From the NCBI GenBank assembly GCA_021432655.1, contig MU271291.1, positions 1 to 64,000 of the forward strand: a stretch of DNA of 64,000 nucleotides. Direction: 5' to 3'. Shown one piece after another: positions 3,149-60,972 of the stretch. Made by a program: the position numbers and the translations under genes. Every line of letters starts with the position of its first letter. Positions within the stretch are counted from its first letter, which is position 1. Origin of the DNA: Atractiella rhizophila. Taxonomy: Eukaryota. The notes under the pieces are model-generated. The model saw only the letters and a program-made list of their open reading frames with translations. It was not told the origin of the DNA and ran no database searches.

Positions 3149-4411
3149 ATGTTCGGTACACCAGCAAGTAGTCAAGATGTTGAGGTAGGACTTCGCAGTT
3201 GGCAGTTTTAAGTGAAAATAGATATTTAAGTTATATGACAGGTTGGACAACCTCCTTCTGATGCTATCTCCTCACTTTCTTGGTCTCCAACGGCAGACTT
3301 CATTGCAGTAGGTAGCTGGGACAACAATGTGTGTTTTATCCCCCCCAGAAAATATATTGACCTGGAGCTAATTCATGAGATAAAGGTGCGTGTGTACGAG
3401 ATGGACCCTTCGAATGGCCAAACGCGCCCCGTCACTTCCTACAGTCACGATTCCCCCGTTCTGAGCGTGTGCTGGAACAAAGTACGTGATGGTCACTACT
3501 CTTCTATTGTATTAAGTATCGTTTGGCGTAGGAAGGTAACAAGATCTTCTCCGGCTCAGCAGACAAAACGGTTAAGGTCTACGATGTGTCGACTGGCCAA
3601 TCAAACAAACTTGGGGACCACCAAGACACCGTTAAGGGAGTGGTATGGGCAGATGCTCAAGGAGGAGTCCTAGCTTCGGCCAGCTGGGACAAAACACTCA
3701 AGGTGCGTTTGTCAAGAGCCCTCTGAATCAACACATCTCATAACCATTTAATCAATGGAGCAGTATTGGGATCTTCGTTCCCCTCAACCAGTGGCGACTG
3801 TCTCCCTACCCGAGCGAGCATATTCAATGGCCACATCCTCCACCTTGCTCCTAATCGCTACTGCTGATCGCCACCTCTGTCTGTTCAACCTCACCTCCCC
3901 AACGACAATATTCAAGCAAGTCTACAGTCCTCTCAAGTTCCAAACCCGCTCTGTCGCATGCATGCCAGAGGGGAAAGGCTACGCTGTCGCCTCTATTGAA
4001 GGTCGGGTATCAGTCAACTTCTTCTCTGATGCGCCAGCTCCCTACTCGTTTAAGTGCCATCGAAAAGACCTCCCAGGACAAAACACTTCTGTAAATGCGA
4101 GCCAATCCAAGTACCAGAAAGCCACATGGTCCGTCAACTCACTGTCGTTCCATCAGCAACTGGGAAGTCTTGCCACCGCAGGGACGGACGCGTCATTCTC
4201 CTTTTGGGATCTGGAGGGTAAATCAAAGCTTAAAACCTTTGACGAAAGAGGTGGGCCTATTGTAGCGACAGAATTCCATCGTTCAGGAGAATGGTTTGCC
4301 TATGCCATTTCCTACGACTGGAGCAATGGTTTCTCTCCCAATATGCCACAAGTTCCGAATAAGATATTTCTGCATAAAGTCCAGCGCGAGGAAGTGAATA
4401 GGAAGAGATAG
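3149..4411 (+). CDS. Divergent Rae1/Gle2 paralogue (WD40)
   Basis: MFGTPASSQDVE|VGQPPSDAISSLSWSPTADFIAVGSWDNN|VRVYE...YWDLRSPQPVATVSLPERAY...SPLKFQTRSVACMPEGKGYAVASIEGRV...FKCHR...FAYAISYDWSNG. Four 5' introns are followed by one long terminal exon. Confidence 0.88.
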
Positions 4412-8360: not shown

Positions 8361-8838
8361 ATTTCAGCCTGAAGAATCGAAGAAGAGATAAAAGAGTGCC
8401 TTTGTTGCAACACGACGACTCTGCTGTACGATACAGGTTTATTTCAAGAGAGGTTGTGGTATAGCCTCGAAGCACAGGTCTTAAATAGTCATGATATAGA
8501 AAGAATTAGCGCAATGAAATCACAAACAAAGCCTTTGTCAAACGCGCTGTGTACCATTTTTCCCAACCTTGAACTCACCTTCGAGAGCCTCTGCGGTGCT
8601 AACTCGGCCCAACTCCAGTGCTAGCACCTTTACGCCCTGCGTCTGTGCCAGGAGATGCTGCTGTGGTGGATAGGACTTTGTGTCGGCGGCAAATCCGACA
8701 CTCGATCAACATGCGTGAGGCAAACGACTGAAACGACCATTGACGGTTAACTTCTCGACTTCCCTCACTGTAATTGGGAACGCTGCCCACAAGTGTTTAA
8801 CTCCTCAAAACAACTTTGCCATCGTTTGACTGGACAGA

Positions 8839-10525
8839 ATGACTACACCTACCCAGCGAGACAAGATCGCTCTTATCGTAGAGTGGAGAGACCAGCTGGA
8901 TGTTGCTGTGGCGAATAACAAAATGGATGACTTGAAGACGATTCTCATGAAGCTGAAGAACGATATTGTGGTTAATGAGGAACTTATTCGAGTGCGTTGT
9001 TTCTTTTGTAAAAGACACATTCCAGGGTCTGTGGTGGGGTTGAAAGAAAGAAAAGACGTCAGAGGATCAGCTTTCTGATACCGTCCTTAAAAACACTCTC
9101 ATCATTAAAGGACGGGCATGTCCGGGCGATATTGAGTATATACTCATGAGAAGTTTGTGACAGGAAACGAGGATCGGCCTCAAGGTAGGGAAACTGAGGT
9201 CGAGTGACAATAAGGAGGTTTCTAGTCTAGCGAAGGGTTTAGTGAAAAAATGGAAAGAATTAGTAGAGGCTGGGAAGGGTTCAGGAGGCAAGACTAACAC
9301 GCCGAAGCCGGCGAGAAAGGACTCAACCATAAGCGGTATGTTTATTATGTCCATCTGAATGTTCATACCTAATTCTTGTTGTCGGTGTGCTCCCAGTTAC
9401 TTCAAGTGGGGCTCGCCCACCGCCTCCAGCCTCTCCCAAACTTCAAACTTCTACTGGGTCTCCGTCCCCTGCCCCTGGCCCCTCGCATACCAATGGAACA
9501 AATGGAACCGAGACTGGGAAGTCCTATAAGCTTGCGAACGGACAGTCAAGGACGAGTGCTCTTGACGGGATAAATACTCAAGTTTACGGTGATCCAAAGA
9601 GGGATGGACCGTTGAATTTGATCTACAATGCTCTAGCAAGCGACTCTGACGCACGTAAGTACTTCCTATTTACAAAAGGGTTCGGTTCGGGAGGTGTTGT
9701 CCGTTGTCCCCTCCATGAGGCGGGAACGCAAGCGTCTTTGTTAGGATCGCTTCGCGTTCCCGCCTCGAACTGCGTCTTGAGGATTCGAGTGGGCGGGTAG
9801 GATGGATGGACTCTGCACTCTCCTGCGAGTGTAGAATATCCGTCCATCCTACCCGCCCGATTGTGCGTTTCGTGTGGTCATCCAAGATTCTGATTCCGTG
9901 TTGTGGCGTCCAGCTCCATCCGTCGTCTTGGAGAAGGCGACAGCAGTCGAAGCCGCGCTACAATCGGCGCACCCGGACAAGAAACAATATACAACAAAAG
10001 CACGAAGTCTTTACATGAACCTGAAAGACCCAAAGAATCCACAACTAAGAGCGGATGTCATGAGTGGTGCTATTCAACCTGCGAAACTGGTCGTCATGCG
10101 TCCTCAGGTTTGTCCTATCATGCATAATACCATGAATCATGTAAAATGTGTACAGGAAATGGCTTCGAAAGAGCTGAAGGAGGAAAACGAAAAGATTCAA
10201 AGCCAAAACCTCTTCAATGCCCAAGGAGCCACGTTGAATGAGGCCACAACCGATATGTTCCAGTGCAAACGTTGCCGACAGTGGAAGACAACTTATTATC
10301 AGAGTGAGTCATCTTTTTGTCACAATTACCTTTACTGACTGCTTTTGCAGTGCAAGTATGTATAATCGCCATCGAAAAGAATTTCCTTGACTGTTATCAA
10401 CTAGACTCGCTCAGCAGACGAACCGATGACTACATTTGTCACCTGCACCAACTGTGGGAATCGTTGGAAGGTTGGGATCCTTTCTCCCAATATGCCCTGG
10501 CTGACAAATTTGTGAACAGTTCTGA
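8839..10525 (+). CDS. DST1: Transcription elongation factor S-II (TFIIS)
   Basis: N-terminal domain [22 protein letters not shown], central [18 protein letters not shown], and Zn ribbon [34 protein letters not shown] (assembled through a 5-nt microexon). Confidence 0.95.
9717..9858 (+). ncRNA. Candidate structured RNA element (two long hairpins) within TFIIS intron 3
   Basis: GAGGCGGGAACGC/GCGTTCCCGCCTC (13 bp, plus 9 more bp) and GGGCGGGTAGGATGGATGGA/TCCGTCCATCCTACCCGCCC (20 bp, plus 9 more bp). The non-WC pairs are G.U on the sense strand. Function unknown. Confidence 0.45.
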
Positions 10526-10731
10526 ATCCACCCCATGCACTCCTTTTTCGTGTTTTCTGCACTGTTTTACTCTTTCGATTGTTGACTGAGTGAGGTTCAC
10601 GGCTTCATAACAAAATGTACAATTCGTTACCGATCAACGCTTCAACAGAGCCACGTTCCATCATTTGGCGGTTCTCTGATTATTGATGCACGTGCCCTGT
10701 TGACCACTCCAGTTTTGCTTCCGACAATCCA

Positions 10732-26902: not shown

Positions 26903-26973
26903 TCTCAGATGGTCCAATGGTAGGATACCTACTTGTCTTGCAGGTGGTAGAGGTTCAATTCCTCTTCTGAGAG
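26903..26973 (+). tRNA. tRNA-Asp(GTC), atypical (possibly pseudo-tRNA)
   Basis: Acceptor TCTCAGA/TCTGAGA+G, D arm GTCC/GGAT, anticodon loop TT-GTC-TT, T arm AGAGG-TTCAATT-CCTCT, with a downstream T-run at ~26985-26994. Confidence 0.75.
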
Positions 26974-50826: not shown

Positions 50827-52190
50827 GTGAATGGATGCGAGGAGGAGGAATATGATCAATTCAACATCACAGATGACCTGGATGTCGAGCGCCACTTTAA
50901 GGCTTTAGGACCCGGTGACTTCTTCATTCGCATAGATGGCGTGGAGAAAAGGGGAGAGTATCGGCCTACAAATATCTCGGCGGTACCAGTGGGAGATAAC
51001 TCTGCAGAGTCTTTTATAGAGATCTTCCAGAGGGTTATCATTTTTCTTGTGGAAAGCTGATCTGAAGGGTACCAATAGCACTACCTACGGCCTGCGCGAG
51101 ACGAAGGAACGCTGGTGCGCACCAATGCTCAACCAATCGCTACCTCATACCCCTACGCTTTTGGTCTCTGCCCTCGCTGCCCACACCTCTCCACCTCCAT
51201 GGATCCTCAAAATCCTTCCTCCATGCCACCACAACCCGCGCAATTCCGGTCCTGGGTTCAAACTGAGGACGTCAAAGGCGGCTGTCTTCCAATCACCGCT
51301 TTCGAGAGGCTCTATCGTCGTGACATGTTGGGGATAGGTGGAATGAAATTCATCCCATTTGCGGGAAACTACAAGTTCCATCCTTCGAATGGTGTTTGTG
51401 GAGAGGAGGTGCTGGGGGTGGGAAGATTCGACAACCGAGAGTCGTGCATACAATCGTACGTCCACTTTTTCGATCTCCATTGCAGCCTATTGAGCAGAGA
51501 ATCGAAATGGACATGAAAGGACCTTTTACGACGGTCTCGTGCACTGGTTGGAGGGAAAAACAGAGCTCATGAGCGTTTCGAAGCAAGAAGCCGACAAGTT
51601 TCGGGAAATTGGCAGCCTGAAGTTGAAGGTCAACTGGTTCGTGGTTTCTCGAGCCAACCAGTGCAACGCTGACTACTTGTATCCCGCCTTGACTTGCGAG
51701 CAGTTGGAATCCATATCAGTCCTCATCATCAGTGCCGTAAGTCCTTCGTCTCTCCCTTCGCTCGAGAGACTTGATCAGCGCGGCCTGAACGGTGAACATG
51801 GCTAACATATTAATCACCTCCACAGTACGATGTACAAGTGGTACATGTATTTTAAGCTCTGGAACACATTTCCTCTGTCAACTGCAATTCCGATCCAAGA
51901 CTCATCTTCCCCACCGCTCCGACAACTCTGAGTCAGTCCGCTCTTTCGCGCCGCTATTGACCAGTATCCCGTAGACCCCTCGGGACGACGAATTTGTCCA
52001 AAAGTTTAATGACATGGATACTAATCGTAAAATTCGGTACTAGGACGAATGGGTCGTATCCGAGGAGACAGAGAAGGGATGGACAAAGTCGATCAGTTCC
52101 GGGATGTGCTGGATACGTGCATGCTCAAACTGATGCGCTTGACTGGATAAGTGACGGGAGCCTCCTGCGAAGTGGAATAGTGGCATCGTC
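50827..52190 (+). pseudogene. Possible degenerate gene relic
   Basis: Protein-like segments with intron-like gaps are interrupted by in-frame stops and frame changes (e.g. GYQ*HYLRPARDEG..., KIRY*DEWVVSEE). No recognisable family. Confidence 0.35.
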
Positions 52191-55410: not shown

Positions 55411-58264
55411 GATCGTATAAATATCCCCATCTCTAATACCCTGCTCGAGTTTAACACCAACAATTTGAGGCAGCAGGAGACAGATTCGTGGGCTGAAGGC
55501 AACGCTGCAGCAGCAATATGTTCACCAGGCAGCCGGACAGATCCATGGGACTGACATCTCGAATCAAAAGGCGTTCCTTGTAATCTTTCCGTCAGATTCT
55601 CTAAACGAGGACATCCTCGTTGCGTACTACCCTCACAATTAATTCCAAAGAACAAGGAAGAGCAGCTTGATAGGAAGCGCAGAGGAACACTTCCAATCAA
55701 CCAACTAGCCTCAAAACACTGCACACGCTCCAAAAGAAATAATTCTCTCCAGCTTCTCATGCAAATGACCATACATCCTTACACTTGTAATGCCGCGCGA
55801 AGTTCTACGTCGTTTGTCACCATTCATCATGCATTTTCACGACACTGCGGCTCCGGGGTGTCGACTCCAAAATTTTTCGACAACCAACAACACGCAGCTT
55901 CTTCTCCCAGCTTACGTTCTGTGCAGCTCCACTCGCTCGTCTGCCTGAGCCCTCCCAAGCAGTTTTCCCATGCTTACTTCTGTTCGTCGCCAATTTCGAC
56001 CTCTCCGTTCCACGACAGCAGCGCGAGTCCGCCAATTCTCGCTCACGCGCACCATCCGACAAGCCCCTGAGGCAGACCCAGAAGCAGATGTGGAAGCTGA
56101 AGACGAAGACAGTGCTGATGTGGGAAGACAAGCAGAAGAAGATTTCGGAGAGCAGGGAACCCGTGGGTCCTCGAGGGTTACGCTGAATGCTGCATCGGGG
56201 TATTTTGAGACTTGGAAGGCTACAAGTGGAGAGTATAAGGCCATGGATCCGAGGTTTAGAGGTGCTGCATTTCCTGGAGGAGAGAAATTTAAGCATGGCG
56301 TTGATGGAACGAACTGGTTGGGTGGAGAGGTGGTCAGTTGAATTTCCTTTCCTTTTGCTCATCCTTCTGGGTTGAGACAGTGGACATGCACTCCCTGATG
56401 TGACATTTCCCGACAGTCGAAACTGCCATAAAGTTTAGCTGTAGCTGAACATCACAGTAAAGTCTAGACTGCTTCAGCATCCTCACTTGTAGTCCGTCTG
56501 AATGTTTGTGTTGACGATTTTTTCTAGCCTTTTCCAGGGAATCCCACATTTCGACCGCCCACACCTCTCTCCGCTCTTACTATGTCCTTAATACACGCCT
56601 ACTACCTCAACCGCCTCCGCACTCCCCTCCATTCAGAAGCCTCTCAGAAAGAGTTGGTCAACATTAAATCCAAGCTGTCCGTCTGGTCCGATCGCGCACT
56701 GAGCGAGCATCAAGAGGAGGAAGCTCGAGCGTCTCGAAAGAATGGGAGCGACGATAAATACGGGTCAACTTCGAGACGGAGAGATGAGATGGATATGATG
56801 GATGAAGACGATATGATGGACGAGGAGCACATGATGATGATGAACCATATAAATATCCCCGTCTCAACTACCGTGCTCGAGTTTAACACCGCCAATCTAA
56901 GGCAGCAGGAGACCAATTCATGGGCTAAAGTCAACGCTGCAGGCAAAAAAGGCAGCTGAACAGATTGATGGGACTGACATCGCAAAATGAAAAGACAATA
57001 TTTGGGTCAGATTCTCCAAACGAGGACATCTTCGTTGCGTACTGCCTTCACAAATTAATGCCAAAGAACAAGGAAGAGCAGCTGGATAGGAAGTCGGAAG
57101 AACACTTCCAATCCACTAACAAGCCTCAAAACACTGCCACGCTCCAATAAGAAATAATTCGCTCTAGCTTCCATGGAAAGGACCGTACGCCCCTACATTC
57201 GTGATGCCGTGCGAAGTCGCAGATTAGTACCATTCATAATGCATTGTCATATTTCGTGATACACTACGGCTCCGGGTGTCCACTCCAAAATTTTTCGACA
57301 ACCAACAACACCTAGCTTCTTCTCCCAGCTTACGTTGTGTTGTGTGCAGCTCCATTCGCGCGTCTGCCTGAGTCCTCCAAGCAGTTTTCCCATGCTCACT
57401 TCTGTCCGTCGCCAATTTCGACCTCTCCGTTCCACGACAGCAGCGCGAGTCCGCCAATTCTCGCTCACGCGCACCATTCGACAAGCCCCTGAGGCAGACC
57501 CAGAAGCAGAAGTGGAAGCTGAAGACGAAGACAGTGCTGATGTGGGAAGACAAGCAGAAGAAGATTTCGGAGAGCAGGGAACCCGTGGGTCCTCGAGGGT
57601 TACGTTGAATGCTGCATCGGGGTATTTTGAGACTTGGAAGGCTACAAGTGGAGAGTATAAGGCCATGGATCCGAGGTTTAGAGGTGCTGCATTTCCTGGA
57701 GGAGAGAAATTTAAGCATGGCGTTGATGGAACGAACTGGTTGGGTGGGGAGGTGGTCAGTTGAATTTCCTTTCCTTTTGCTCATCCTTCTGGGTTGAGAC
57801 AGTGGACATGCACTCCCTGATGTGACATTTCCCGACAGTCGAAACTGCCATAAAGTTTAGCTGTAGCTGAACATCACAGTAAAGTCTAGACTGCTTCAGC
57901 ATCCTCACTTGTAGTCCGTCTGAATGTTTGTGTTGACGATTTTTTCTAGCCTTTTCCAGGGAATCCCACATTTCGACCGCCCACACCTCTCTCCGCTCTT
58001 ACTATGTCCTTAATACACGCCTACTACCTCAACCGCCTCCGCACTCCCCTCCATTCAGAAGCCTCTCAGAAAGAGTTGGTCAACATTAAATCCAAGCTGT
58101 CCGTCTGGTCCGATCGCGCACTGAGCGAGCATCAAGAGGAGGAAGCTCGAGCGTCTCGAAAGAATGGGAGCGACGATAAATACGGGTCAACTTCGAGACG
58201 GAGAGATGAGATGGATATGATGGATGAAGACGATATGATGGACGAGGAGCACATGATGATGATG
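55411..58264. repeat. Tandem ~1.43-kb duplication (55411-56842 / 56843-58264)
   Basis: Both units begin ..tataaatatcccc and end ..gagcacatgatgatgatg. The upstream non-coding part is strongly diverged and the distal part is identical. Confidence 0.93.
55970..56842 (+). pseudogene. 3'-truncated copy of the Bot1/mS45 gene (probable allelic haplotype copy)
   Basis: Same first exon, intron and start of exon 2 as 57392 onward. It runs into the unit-2 upstream region at 56843. Confidence 0.7.
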
Positions 58265-60972
58265 GAGGGGCGAGAAAGCTCGGAGGCAGAGGCAGACGGG
58301 GCTGAAGGGGCTGAAGGGGCGGAGGAGCTGGAGGAGCTGGAAGATGAATGGGAGCTGCCGGAAGAGTATGACGCGGAGGTGGAGCAGAAGCTGCGAGATA
58401 TCGTGCCATCGATGGGACCTGCGCTGGAGAGAGATTTGGCTAAAGATTTAGGGTTAGAGGATCAAAATGACCTCCTTCACCCTATTTTCGAGGAAGCGGC
58501 GCAGTGGTATGCTCAGTGGAGGGCTTTGAGTCCTCTCAGGGCCATGAATAGGGTCAGGAAAGAGGCGGCGTCTACGTTGCTTTTCTTACAAGAGATGAGA
58601 GATTTAGCCAAGACTCTAGAAGAGAAAGGCGTCCAGGTGGATGTCGAGGAATTGGAGCGAGCGGTCAGGAATCGCTGGCTGCGGTCGAAAGGGAAAAGCA
58701 GTGGAGCAACGTCAGAAGCCGCTATAGGGAACCTCGCTTTGATAGCTAAGGAAAAAGTTGATCGAGTTGAGGCGAGGGCAAGGTATTTTGAAGGGCAAGG
58801 ATTGGAAGCGGCTGCTGCATGGGAGAAAGCGGTTACGGTTGACGATGCCTTTGTTCGCTTCGAGAAAACAACGAAAGATGTCGCCAGCGCACTCTCCACG
58901 AAGCAGGATGATCCCACGCTCGATGCGCTTTACACAGACATTCGGCAATCGTTTCCTCTTTCCTCTTCAGAGTCCAGCAATCTCTCAAATAACATCACGG
59001 ATCTAGAAGTGGAATTCAAGTCTTTCAGCCTTGCGAATCAAGGCGCAACGACCCGTCCTGCACTCTTGCCCAAATTTATTGAGATGGCTGCTCGAGAACA
59101 TCCCTTTGTGCAAGGAGAGATCTGGCGACCAGCAGAGGATAAATCGGCAGACCGACATCCTTTCGTGCTTGAATATGAGCAGACAGCAATTGAAACCTTG
59201 CCTTCGATACCCCTAACCCATTTTGGATCACCACAACAACCACTGAGACAGCTACTGGAATACGTTCACGAGCCTATCGTGGAGAAATCAGTGGTCGAGG
59301 GTGTCGATGTGTCTGAAAATGTGGTTCAGGAGAAAGGGGAAGAGGCAACACAGGCGGAGAAGGTTGAGGAGGAAGAGAAGGATCAATCCGCATGGGCCGT
59401 CGCACTGAAAGGGAAGAAGAAGGTCTATGCATCCAATCTCCCCATTCCTCTTCTTCCAGACTTTTCCGAAATATTATCTCCGCCTTCAACTTCGAAAGCA
59501 CAAACTGCGACGCAGAGTGATGATTGGGCCCTTTCCGACACTTTGCAATATCGAACAAGGACCATGGCCGCCAGAGAAACTGCCGCTAAGTTTGGAATCT
59601 CGATGGATAGAGTGCGAGCTGTGATCAAGCTTATGGAGCTAGAACTCGAGTGGAAGAAGAAGGTTTGCTTTTCACCTAATACATGCTGGTCGATGATGCT
59701 CAAATATTTGCCCATGTTTAGGGAATCACCCTTCAAGAAAACCTCAATCGTGGAATGGAGAAGCACATGGGAGTCAAAACCTTGCCAAAGCACCATATCG
59801 AGTACGAGATGTACGAGAAGGATCGTCACAGCGCTCTGCAGAGCGACTTCATTTTCGCTGAACCTGATGTCGCCGAGCGATTCGAGCAAAGTCGAAAGGA
59901 TGCAGAACTCCAACTTTATTCCGCCGAATCATCAAAATCTATTGTCTTGCCAGACGGTACACGTGAAACTATTGTTGAACAGACCAAGCGGACCAAATCA
60001 AGTCGCACTACCACGAGTTCCGCTTCCTCGACGGCCGCCATTCCTTCTGAAACCAATGGTGACCTACCAACGTCGACCCAACCCGTTGAGGCTGTTGAAA
60101 TCGACCTTGATGACCGACTGCTCTCCGACCCAGAGGTTCAATTAGACGCCAAGTATCAGTCTGAGCGGCGACTAGCATCGTTAGCCATTGACGGAATGGA
60201 CCAACCTCACAAGCTCACCTTTAACGTCCCGTCCAAACTTCGCCGTGAACGAGATCATCGATCTGTTTGGCGGTTTGTCGACGTCACTGGAACGGAGAAG
60301 GGACAAGAGCTCGAAAAGTCTTATCAACTTAGTGATCGTGGCAATCGCCGACAGAGGCGAAAGAGACGAGCTGCCGCTCATCACATCTCACGTCCGCTCC
60401 CAGAACCGAAGTCTTCGGCTCACCTCCAAGCCTTGCTGGAGGAAAAGAAAAGACTGGATCTCAAAATTTGGAATTCGTCTCTTCCAGTCTCTTTGGCATC
60501 GCAACTGTCGAAATCCATGTATGACCCCAAACCAGTCAGTCCGGCCGAAATAGGTGCGTCTCGGCAACGGACAGAACGATTACAAGTGGAACGTTTAAGG
60601 AAGTCGATGAAGCGGGTCCAGACTCGATTATCGAAGCTTCAGCAGAAGGACTGGGGTACACGTGGATGGGGTGAAGATGCAGCAGCGGCACTTGAGATTG
60701 GAGAAAACCCTGCCGTTCGAGACTCCACACCAATTCATATTGACTTCAAAGATGGTGATCGTCTATCAAGCTACCGCCCGCCAGTTGGATACTCTATCGA
60801 AGGAACACCAACTCAGGGTAAGCTAAACAAGATGAATTGGTGGCAGAAAGCGAAAGGGAAGCAGAGGGCGGAGAGACTGAAGAAGGCTGAGGAGCGAGAC
60901 GCTTGGTTTGCGTCCGTAATGGATAGTGCGGAAACCACTCCTTCCGAAGGAGCAAAAGAATCCTCCAGTTGA
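57392..60972 (+). CDS. Bot1/mS45 (Mrps35)-like mitochondrial small-subunit protein, strongly expanded
   Basis: Arg-rich presequence MLTSVRRQFRPLRSTTAARVRQFS, then WLGGEV|PFPGNPTFRPPTPLS and, much later, RETAAKFGISMDRVRAVIKLMELELEWKKK|GITL..GMEKHMGV. Confidence 0.7.

Follow-up and report, generated by a model that had tools for sequence, protein, structure and literature searches.

Stable stems and inverted repeats inside introns have been described in several settings, which we take here as far as the available excerpts of the cited reports go. For the long introns of Saccharomyces cerevisiae, hairpins are described as lowering the effective distances between splice signals (PMC12350175; PMC2536676), and a zipper or downstream stem is given for 55.6% of the long introns that were probed (PMC12350175). 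Introner-like elements of fungi, at roughly double the length of regular introns, have stable predicted structures and occur in many near-identical copies (PMC3609843), while the symmetrical stwintrons of the Hypoxylaceae carry terminal inverted repeats of 45 to 55 nt and have no target-site duplications (PMC8469720). Fungal loci of hairpin small RNAs that are fully contained in introns are described as very rare (PMC9757828). A further source of hairpins is replication template switching, which produces single-copy perfect hairpins in place (PMC8794818; PMC10710096). Here we compare with these systems the third intron of a TFIIS gene of Atractiella rhizophila, which holds two exceptionally strong hairpins, H1 and H2. 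The gene lies in the 64,000-nt stretch of DNA that was analysed as a whole (the window).

Gene structure and splicing of intron 3

Comparison of the translated exons with Pfam identified the seven-intron gene as that of transcription elongation factor TFIIS. In the exons flanking intron 3, the Med26/TFIIS_N helical bundle was matched at E 2.9e-10, TFIIS_M at E 3.6e-18 and Zn_ribbon_TFIIS at E 3.5e-13. Contigs of four public runs (X1, X3, X4, and X5) were placed on positions 8800-10600, and intron coordinates were read from the joints of these contigs as compared with the window sequence. X1 is DNA, X4 is guessed to be RNA, and X3 supplied a transcript contig of 3,440 nt; over the exons, each of the four runs agrees with the window to 99% or more. 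The introns, all on the plus strand, are intron 1 (8992-9163, 172 nt), intron 2 (9336-9396, 61 nt), intron 3 (9655-9913, 259 nt), intron 4 (10108-10155, 48 nt), intron 5 (10304-10350, 47 nt), intron 6 (10356-10404, 49 nt), and intron 7 (10471-10519, 49 nt). Intron 3 lies between exon 3 (9397-9654, plus strand), a Ser/Pro-rich linker delimited by run-contig pieces and joints, and exon 4 (9914-10107, plus strand), which run contigs and Pfam place at TFIIS_M profile positions 29-92.

The initial annotation had called intron 3 oversized next to introns of about 45 to 60 nt. This stands in that five of the seven introns measure 47 to 61 nt and intron 3 is the longest of the gene, with the qualification that intron 1 is long as well. 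A crude splice-motif scan found 26 candidate introns of 45 to 69 nt in the window versus about 11 in Markov shuffles, which lends weak support to the notion that short introns may be the norm across the window.

Several features of the gene outside intron 3 came to light in the same contigs. A micro-exon of 5 nt, TGCAA (10351-10355), sits between the 47-nt and 49-nt introns in the zinc-ribbon region of TFIIS, and the RNA contigs of X3, X4, and X5 all carry these five letters between 10303 and 10405. One X4 contig (9096-9302) starts within intron 1 and reaches exon 2, and X4 also has spliced contigs downstream; the contig suggests either some retention of intron 1 or DNA in X4. Over 9301-9600 (from late exon 2 through intron 2 into exon 3), X1 yields several short contigs with a summed depth of up to about 900, and at 9328-9335 X3 differs from the window at three of eight letters. 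The broken X1 contigs and the X3 differences indicate that the linker region is highly polymorphic or heterozygous.

Both of the RNA runs whose contigs pass over the junction, X3 and X5, skip 9655-9913 exactly (joints 9654/9914), as a 259-nt GT..AG intron. The intron and its borders are therefore real, as had been proposed from the window alone, and it is present whole in a single X1 DNA contig of 875 nt (9597-10472). It is a U2-type intron that begins with GTAAGT at 9655 and ends with CAG at 9911-9913. The branch-site consensus is CTRAY, and by its fit to this consensus we take the CTGAT at 9890-9894 (plus strand), with its A at 9893, to be the probable branch site, which precedes the 3' splice site by 20 nt. 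None of the three signals falls within either hairpin. No alternative joint inside intron 3 and no retained-intron contig appeared in the four runs, a count to be read with the fact that contigs drop rare forms. The inside of the intron is uncovered by the RNA contigs of X3, X4, and X5, and contigs cannot show absence.

Two hairpins and their strand asymmetry

H1 (9717-9766, plus strand) comprises 22 bp with two bulges of 1 nt each (U9747 and C9753), a 4-nt UGUU loop and one G.U pair (U9737.G9744). H2 (9791-9858, plus strand) comprises 29 bp, 20 in an outer and 9 in an inner stem, with a 1x3 internal loop (C9811 opposite AUA at 9836-9838), a 6-nt terminal loop and two G.U pairs (U9807.G9842 and G9815.U9832). 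The stems thus total 51 bp with three G.U pairs, two bulges and one 1x3 internal loop, and in the predicted fold the pair probabilities of the outer stems are 0.89 to 1.0. The hairpins are 24 nt apart (9767-9790) and together take up 118 of the 259 nt of the intron.

How far these folds depart from chance was measured in three ways. The sense strand of intron 3 folds at -124.5 kcal/mol against a shuffle mean of -84.1 kcal/mol (z -8.48), and 0 of 200 shuffles did as well. When the window was cut into 80-nt windows at 10-nt steps on both strands (n = 12,786; mean -15.4, sd 5.25 kcal/mol), H2 ranked first at -58.5 kcal/mol and H1 second at -41.9 kcal/mol, the best unrelated window reaching -37.7 kcal/mol. 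A scan for inverted repeats (11-nt seed, at least 16 nt, arms at most 150 nt apart) returned only two in the 64 kb, one of which is H2. The minimum free energy (MFE) indices of the two hairpins are 1.21 and 1.39. These results confirm that both hairpins, which the initial annotation had put at about 22 and 29 bp, are real at these coordinates and lie far beyond chance. Intron 1, the other long intron of the gene, is not unusually structured (z -1.81, with 9 of 200 shuffles folding as well). The second inverted repeat of the window-wide scan is located at 51540-51665 and has 22-nt arms that are 82% complementary and 82 nt apart.

The hairpins had been described as sense-strand-specific, on the grounds that each non-Watson-Crick pair is a G.U on the sense strand. 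The count itself is borne out: U9737.G9744, U9807.G9842, and G9815.U9832 are the only such pairs in the stems, and there is no sense-strand A.C. The strand specificity was overstated, as the antisense strand of intron 3 also folds strongly, at -104.6 kcal/mol (z -6.79 versus -8.48 for the sense strand), with 0 of 200 shuffles as good. In isolation, H1 folds at -37.4 kcal/mol in the sense and -34.9 kcal/mol in the antisense orientation, and H2 at -56.8 and -50.3 kcal/mol, respectively; this gap between the strands exists because of the three G.U pairs. Folding of both strands far better than shuffles is what a DNA palindrome gives.

It had further been argued that the G.U pattern speaks for selection on folded RNA and against a DNA palindrome. 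That three of three non-canonical pairs are G.U rather than A.C has a binomial p of 0.125 if symmetric transition decay is assumed. Within intron 3, X1 and the window differ at two of 259 positions (9673 and 9727), and the C/T at 9727, opposite G9756, is the sole strain difference in a stem and keeps the pairing. Counting it gives four of four structure-preserving changes, a post hoc tally with p of about 0.06 on the G.U versus A.C comparison, or about 0.01 to 0.04, likewise counted post hoc, on the assumption that pairing survives one random substitution in three. Over 8800-10600, moreover, transitions that separate X1 from the window show a strong strand asymmetry (C>T 9 versus G>A 0; A>G 6 versus T>C 1), and this asymmetry may reflect a transcription-linked mutation bias. 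If the changes lie on the X1 side, it is G and T that are favoured on the sense strand, a bias by which alone decaying stems could come to wobble on the sense side. Thus the pattern holds in all three pairs, while the p values of 0.125 to 0.06, the strand-biased substitutions and the folding of both strands leave a weak G.U-based case for RNA-level selection.

Copies, sources and known RNA families

Intron 3 was searched for relatives at several levels of stringency. At up to three mismatches, no second copy of either arm was found in the 64-kb window, and a lenient BLAST of intron 3 against the window returned only the intron itself, its own palindromes and one weak match of 59 nt. No target-site duplication was seen at the hairpin borders, where the flanks read CAT|H1|GAA and AGT|H2|GAT without a direct repeat. 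The X1 contig runs across both hairpins with no loose ends at a depth of 297, versus 337 and 314 in the flanks. An unbroken contig at flank-level depth means that the locus is single-copy in X1 at 31-mer identity; near-identical extra copies would break or inflate the contig, so a young multi-copy family or MITE is unlikely, and diverged copies are still possible. Many genomic copies with target-site duplications, which the initial annotation had named as the mark of a MITE-like insertion, were accordingly seen neither in the window nor in the X1 depth. A MITE or foldback transposon was rejected on the same evidence: inverted arms are present, but there is no target-site duplication and the window holds no other copy. 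Of the properties of introner-like elements, intron 3 shows the length (259 nt versus 47 to 61 nt) and the low folding energy (z -8.48), and many near-identical copies are absent from the 64-kb window and from X1, given its flank-level depth.

The weak match joins 9668-9725 to 4039-4096, at 69% identity, within a probable minus-strand intron of another gene (3993-4142, 150 nt, GTGAGT...CTGAT...TAG). Its local alignment score of 20 exceeds the maximum of 16.5 in 1000 shuffles and its BLAST E value is 0.016, for a pair that was found post hoc. A profile built from the 59-nt match found no third member in the window, and the same lenient BLAST settings applied to the intron at 3993-4142 gave a match of E 0.003 that looks like chance. 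The likeness may be fortuitous, or it may be left over from a common origin of long introns.

Sources within the locus itself were considered as well. An internal direct duplication was rejected as the source of the hairpins, as the best direct-repeat score (8.5) falls below the mean maximum of shuffles (8.9), and no donor sequence for an inverted copy was found. A structural switch in which the arms of H2 would pair with 10-mers in exon 3 (9599-9608) and exon 4 (9915-9924) was also rejected, given that likeness of this degree is expected by chance and that H2, with its roughly -57 kcal/mol, would outcompete it in every case.

Pattern searches were extended to other sequence collections. Contigs from metagenomes, viruses and prokaryote genomes yielded 0 matches to the two-arm pattern of H2, and those from viruses also 0 to the pattern of H1. 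In bacterial genomes, the H1 pattern gave 48 matches whose loops are all unrelated, and these were set aside as generic GC-rich stems of high-GC bacteria. When the exon-4 peptide was searched against metagenome contigs, 599 pattern stretches were obtained and 0 were confirmed by tblastn. Elsewhere in the window, at 58004-60145, lies an open reading frame of 713 aa with a weak Bot1p (mitochondrial regulator) domain, for which a near-length search of a large protein collection found no relative. A kinase encoded in the neighbourhood falls solely into protein clusters of Ascomycota and Basidiomycota, which marks the genome as fungal.

Known RNA families were examined with Rfam. Over 9400-10200 and at E values up to 10, five matches were obtained, all below their gathering scores; the best was mir-491, which reached 30.4 bits where its gathering score is 62, in agreement with the expectation that the intron would match no known family. 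The sub-threshold matches are miRNA precursor models, and their scores reflect generic hairpin shape. At the gathering threshold, the sole match in the whole window is a tRNA, and there is none in intron 3; the tRNA gene lies at 26903-26973.

Box C/D snoRNAs carry a C box (RUGAUGA) and a D box (CUGA) close to their ends, and H/ACA snoRNAs have the order hairpin, H box, hairpin, ACA with pseudouridylation pockets. The C box is absent from intron 3, the only CUGA there is that of the branch-site CTGAT, and there is no Rfam snoRNA match, so a box C/D snoRNA was rejected. An H/ACA reading of the hairpin-spacer-hairpin arrangement was likewise rejected: ANANNA was not found in the 24-nt spacer (9767-9790), no ACA follows H2, and the stems are near-perfect and without pockets. 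The earlier statement that neither box pair is present is therefore upheld. A mirtron was rejected since H1 starts 62 nt past the 5' splice site and H2 stops 55 nt short of the 3' splice site.

Origin and role of the hairpins

The reading that we favour, and to which we give about an even chance, is that a genuine and normally spliced U2-type TFIIS intron tolerates two DNA palindromes that fold, H1 and H2, each of them young and single-copy. In the pre-mRNA, each palindrome would snap shut, probably co-transcriptionally, into a very stable stem-loop. With 118 of the 259 nt folded away in this manner, the hairpins would not interfere with pairing at the splice sites, and they would be discarded with the lariat. 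Their origin may lie in an inverted copy made on the spot, of the kind that replication template switching produces, or in an insertion of some age, and less probably in a mobile family with recent activity. The near-perfect stems suggest a fairly recent origin, and the hairpins would be tolerated passengers rather than a selected RNA device. Since intron 1, at 172 nt and z -1.81, is spliced, the long introns of the TFIIS gene need no such structure.

Four observations count against passengers of this kind. The changes in the stems, that is, the three G.U pairs together with position 9727, are structure-preserving in four of four cases, as tallied post hoc. The two strongest folds of the 64 kb lie side by side in one transcribed intron, an arrangement that two independent neutral accidents would rarely produce. 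The hairpins have also outlived the split between the window and X1, at about 1% divergence, and an origin in place has to reckon with the missing donor sequence.

A possible but doubtful alternative is that the hairpins are kept as an aid to splicing: by looping out 118 nt, they would draw the branch point closer to the 5' splice site for a spliceosome tuned to introns of about 50 nt, in a manner like that of hairpins and zipper stems in the long introns of yeast. When the fold is limited to the two outer stems, the predicted path that leads from the 5' splice site as far as the branch point would shorten from 238 to 124. This idea also draws on the free splice signals, the exact splicing of intron 3, the G.U-only pattern and the yeast precedent of zipper and downstream stems, as the accessible parts of those studies describe it (PMC12350175; PMC2536676). 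The hairpins, however, make up 118 nt of the surplus themselves, and without them intron 3 would measure 141 nt, less than intron 1, which is spliced in the X3 contig with no exceptional structure. Nor does the full MFE structure show compaction beyond chance, its path of 26 steps comparing with a mean of 26.4 when the interior was shuffled (47 of 100 shuffles at or below 26). Both hairpins are local, and the region after the 5' splice site does not pair with the region before the branch point. A yeast-type zipper stem was rejected on this basis, the weak outer helices of the MFE structure having no support beyond shuffles.

It is unlikely, in our judgement, that the intron serves as a small-RNA precursor from which a Dicer-like enzyme cuts one or both hairpins, out of the pre-mRNA or the excised intron, to yield miRNA-like RNAs or hairpin siRNAs. 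The stems (22 and 29 bp) have a suitable form, being interrupted by no more than a few wobbles and bulges and highly stable per nucleotide, and the sole near-misses in Rfam are miRNA precursor models, though all are far below threshold and their scores are those of any hairpin shape. Intronic hairpin loci do exist in fungi, if rarely, and many published fungal milRNA loci fail re-analysis, according to the portion of the survey at hand (PMC9757828); the distances of the hairpins from the splice sites, moreover, set them apart from mirtrons. The stronger version of this proposal, in which intron 3 is a tandem two-hairpin small-RNA gene within a housekeeping gene, with Dicer-like release after splicing and the sense G.U pairs as the trace of selection, we hold to be decidedly unlikely.

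A mobile origin seems improbable to us, be it of intron 3 as a whole, as a degenerate form of introner-like element, or of one or two short foldback or MITE-like insertions in it whose family copies lie outside the window. Fungal introner-like elements are likewise long and stable or of inverted-repeat form, as far as the excerpts of those papers describe them (PMC3609843; PMC8469720), and the 59-nt match to the minus-strand intron at 3993-4142 would fit a shared descent. Against this stand the lack of a second hairpin copy in the 64 kb, of a third member of the 59-nt match and of a target-site duplication, the chance-like match of lower E value under the same BLAST settings, and the unbroken X1 contig at single-copy depth. 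The symmetry, besides, is that of two local hairpins and not of the terminal inverted repeats of known elements.

RNase III-type enzymes and dsRNA-binding proteins have stable dsRNA of at least 20 bp as their generic substrate, and it is very improbable that such a protein destroys or holds back unspliced TFIIS pre-mRNA here, or that cryptic splice sites, for example the UUAG|G at the apex of H1, are hidden by the hairpins: the stems fit the generic substrate and the pyrimidine-rich TTAG at 9741-9744 is paired inside H1, but no supporting motif was found, and the contigs of the four runs, which drop rare forms, hold neither an alternative joint nor a retained intron.

What the locus means depends on which of these readings applies. 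If the hairpins are only young palindromes, the most likely case, they are an example of how very stable hairpins arise and are tolerated inside an intron, and such hairpins are raw material for the later evolution of structured RNAs. If the stems prove to be conserved or processed, the locus would offer a fungal test case of how long introns are handled by a spliceosome accustomed to those of about 50 nt or, alternatively, of whether fungi make small RNAs from the introns of housekeeping genes. If the small-RNA gene reading were true, intron 3 would represent a clearly delimited cluster of hairpin small RNAs inside a fungal intron, in a context that the available text of the fungal survey gives as very rare (PMC9757828).

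The comparison with known systems, made against the excerpts cited at the outset, shows both likeness and difference in each case. Like the zipper and downstream stems of yeast, H1 and H2 are stable helices in an over-long intron of a short-intron fungus and leave the splice signals free, and they would likewise shorten the effective distance from one signal to the other. Zipper stems form between a segment that follows the 5' splice site and one that precedes the branch point, whereas H1 and H2 are self-contained local hairpins; they are also far more perfect and GC-rich than the yeast stems described, and their compaction, which is predicted only, equals that of shuffles. With introner-like elements and stwintrons, intron 3 shares its oversized length, low folding energy, inverted-repeat symmetry and lack of a target-site duplication, whereas no further copy of it was found and its symmetry is internal, that of the described elements being between the intron termini. 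As in fungal milRNA loci and animal mirtrons, to go by the descriptions in those excerpts, the stem-loops are intronic and of pre-miRNA-like size and stability. Unlike those of mirtrons, their ends lie away from the splice sites, and H1 and H2 are known from predicted folds, not from small RNAs. A template switch is called against an outgroup that lacks the inverted copy, and for H1 and H2 no donor was identified. With template-switch hairpins, as the excerpts present them, H1 and H2 have in common that they are single-copy, near-perfect inverted repeats without target-site duplication, of a kind from which RNA hairpins are possible. Taken together, these comparisons assign the two hairpins of the TFIIS intron to a class already known, that of long introns with structure and of palindromes within introns, rather than to a new kind.
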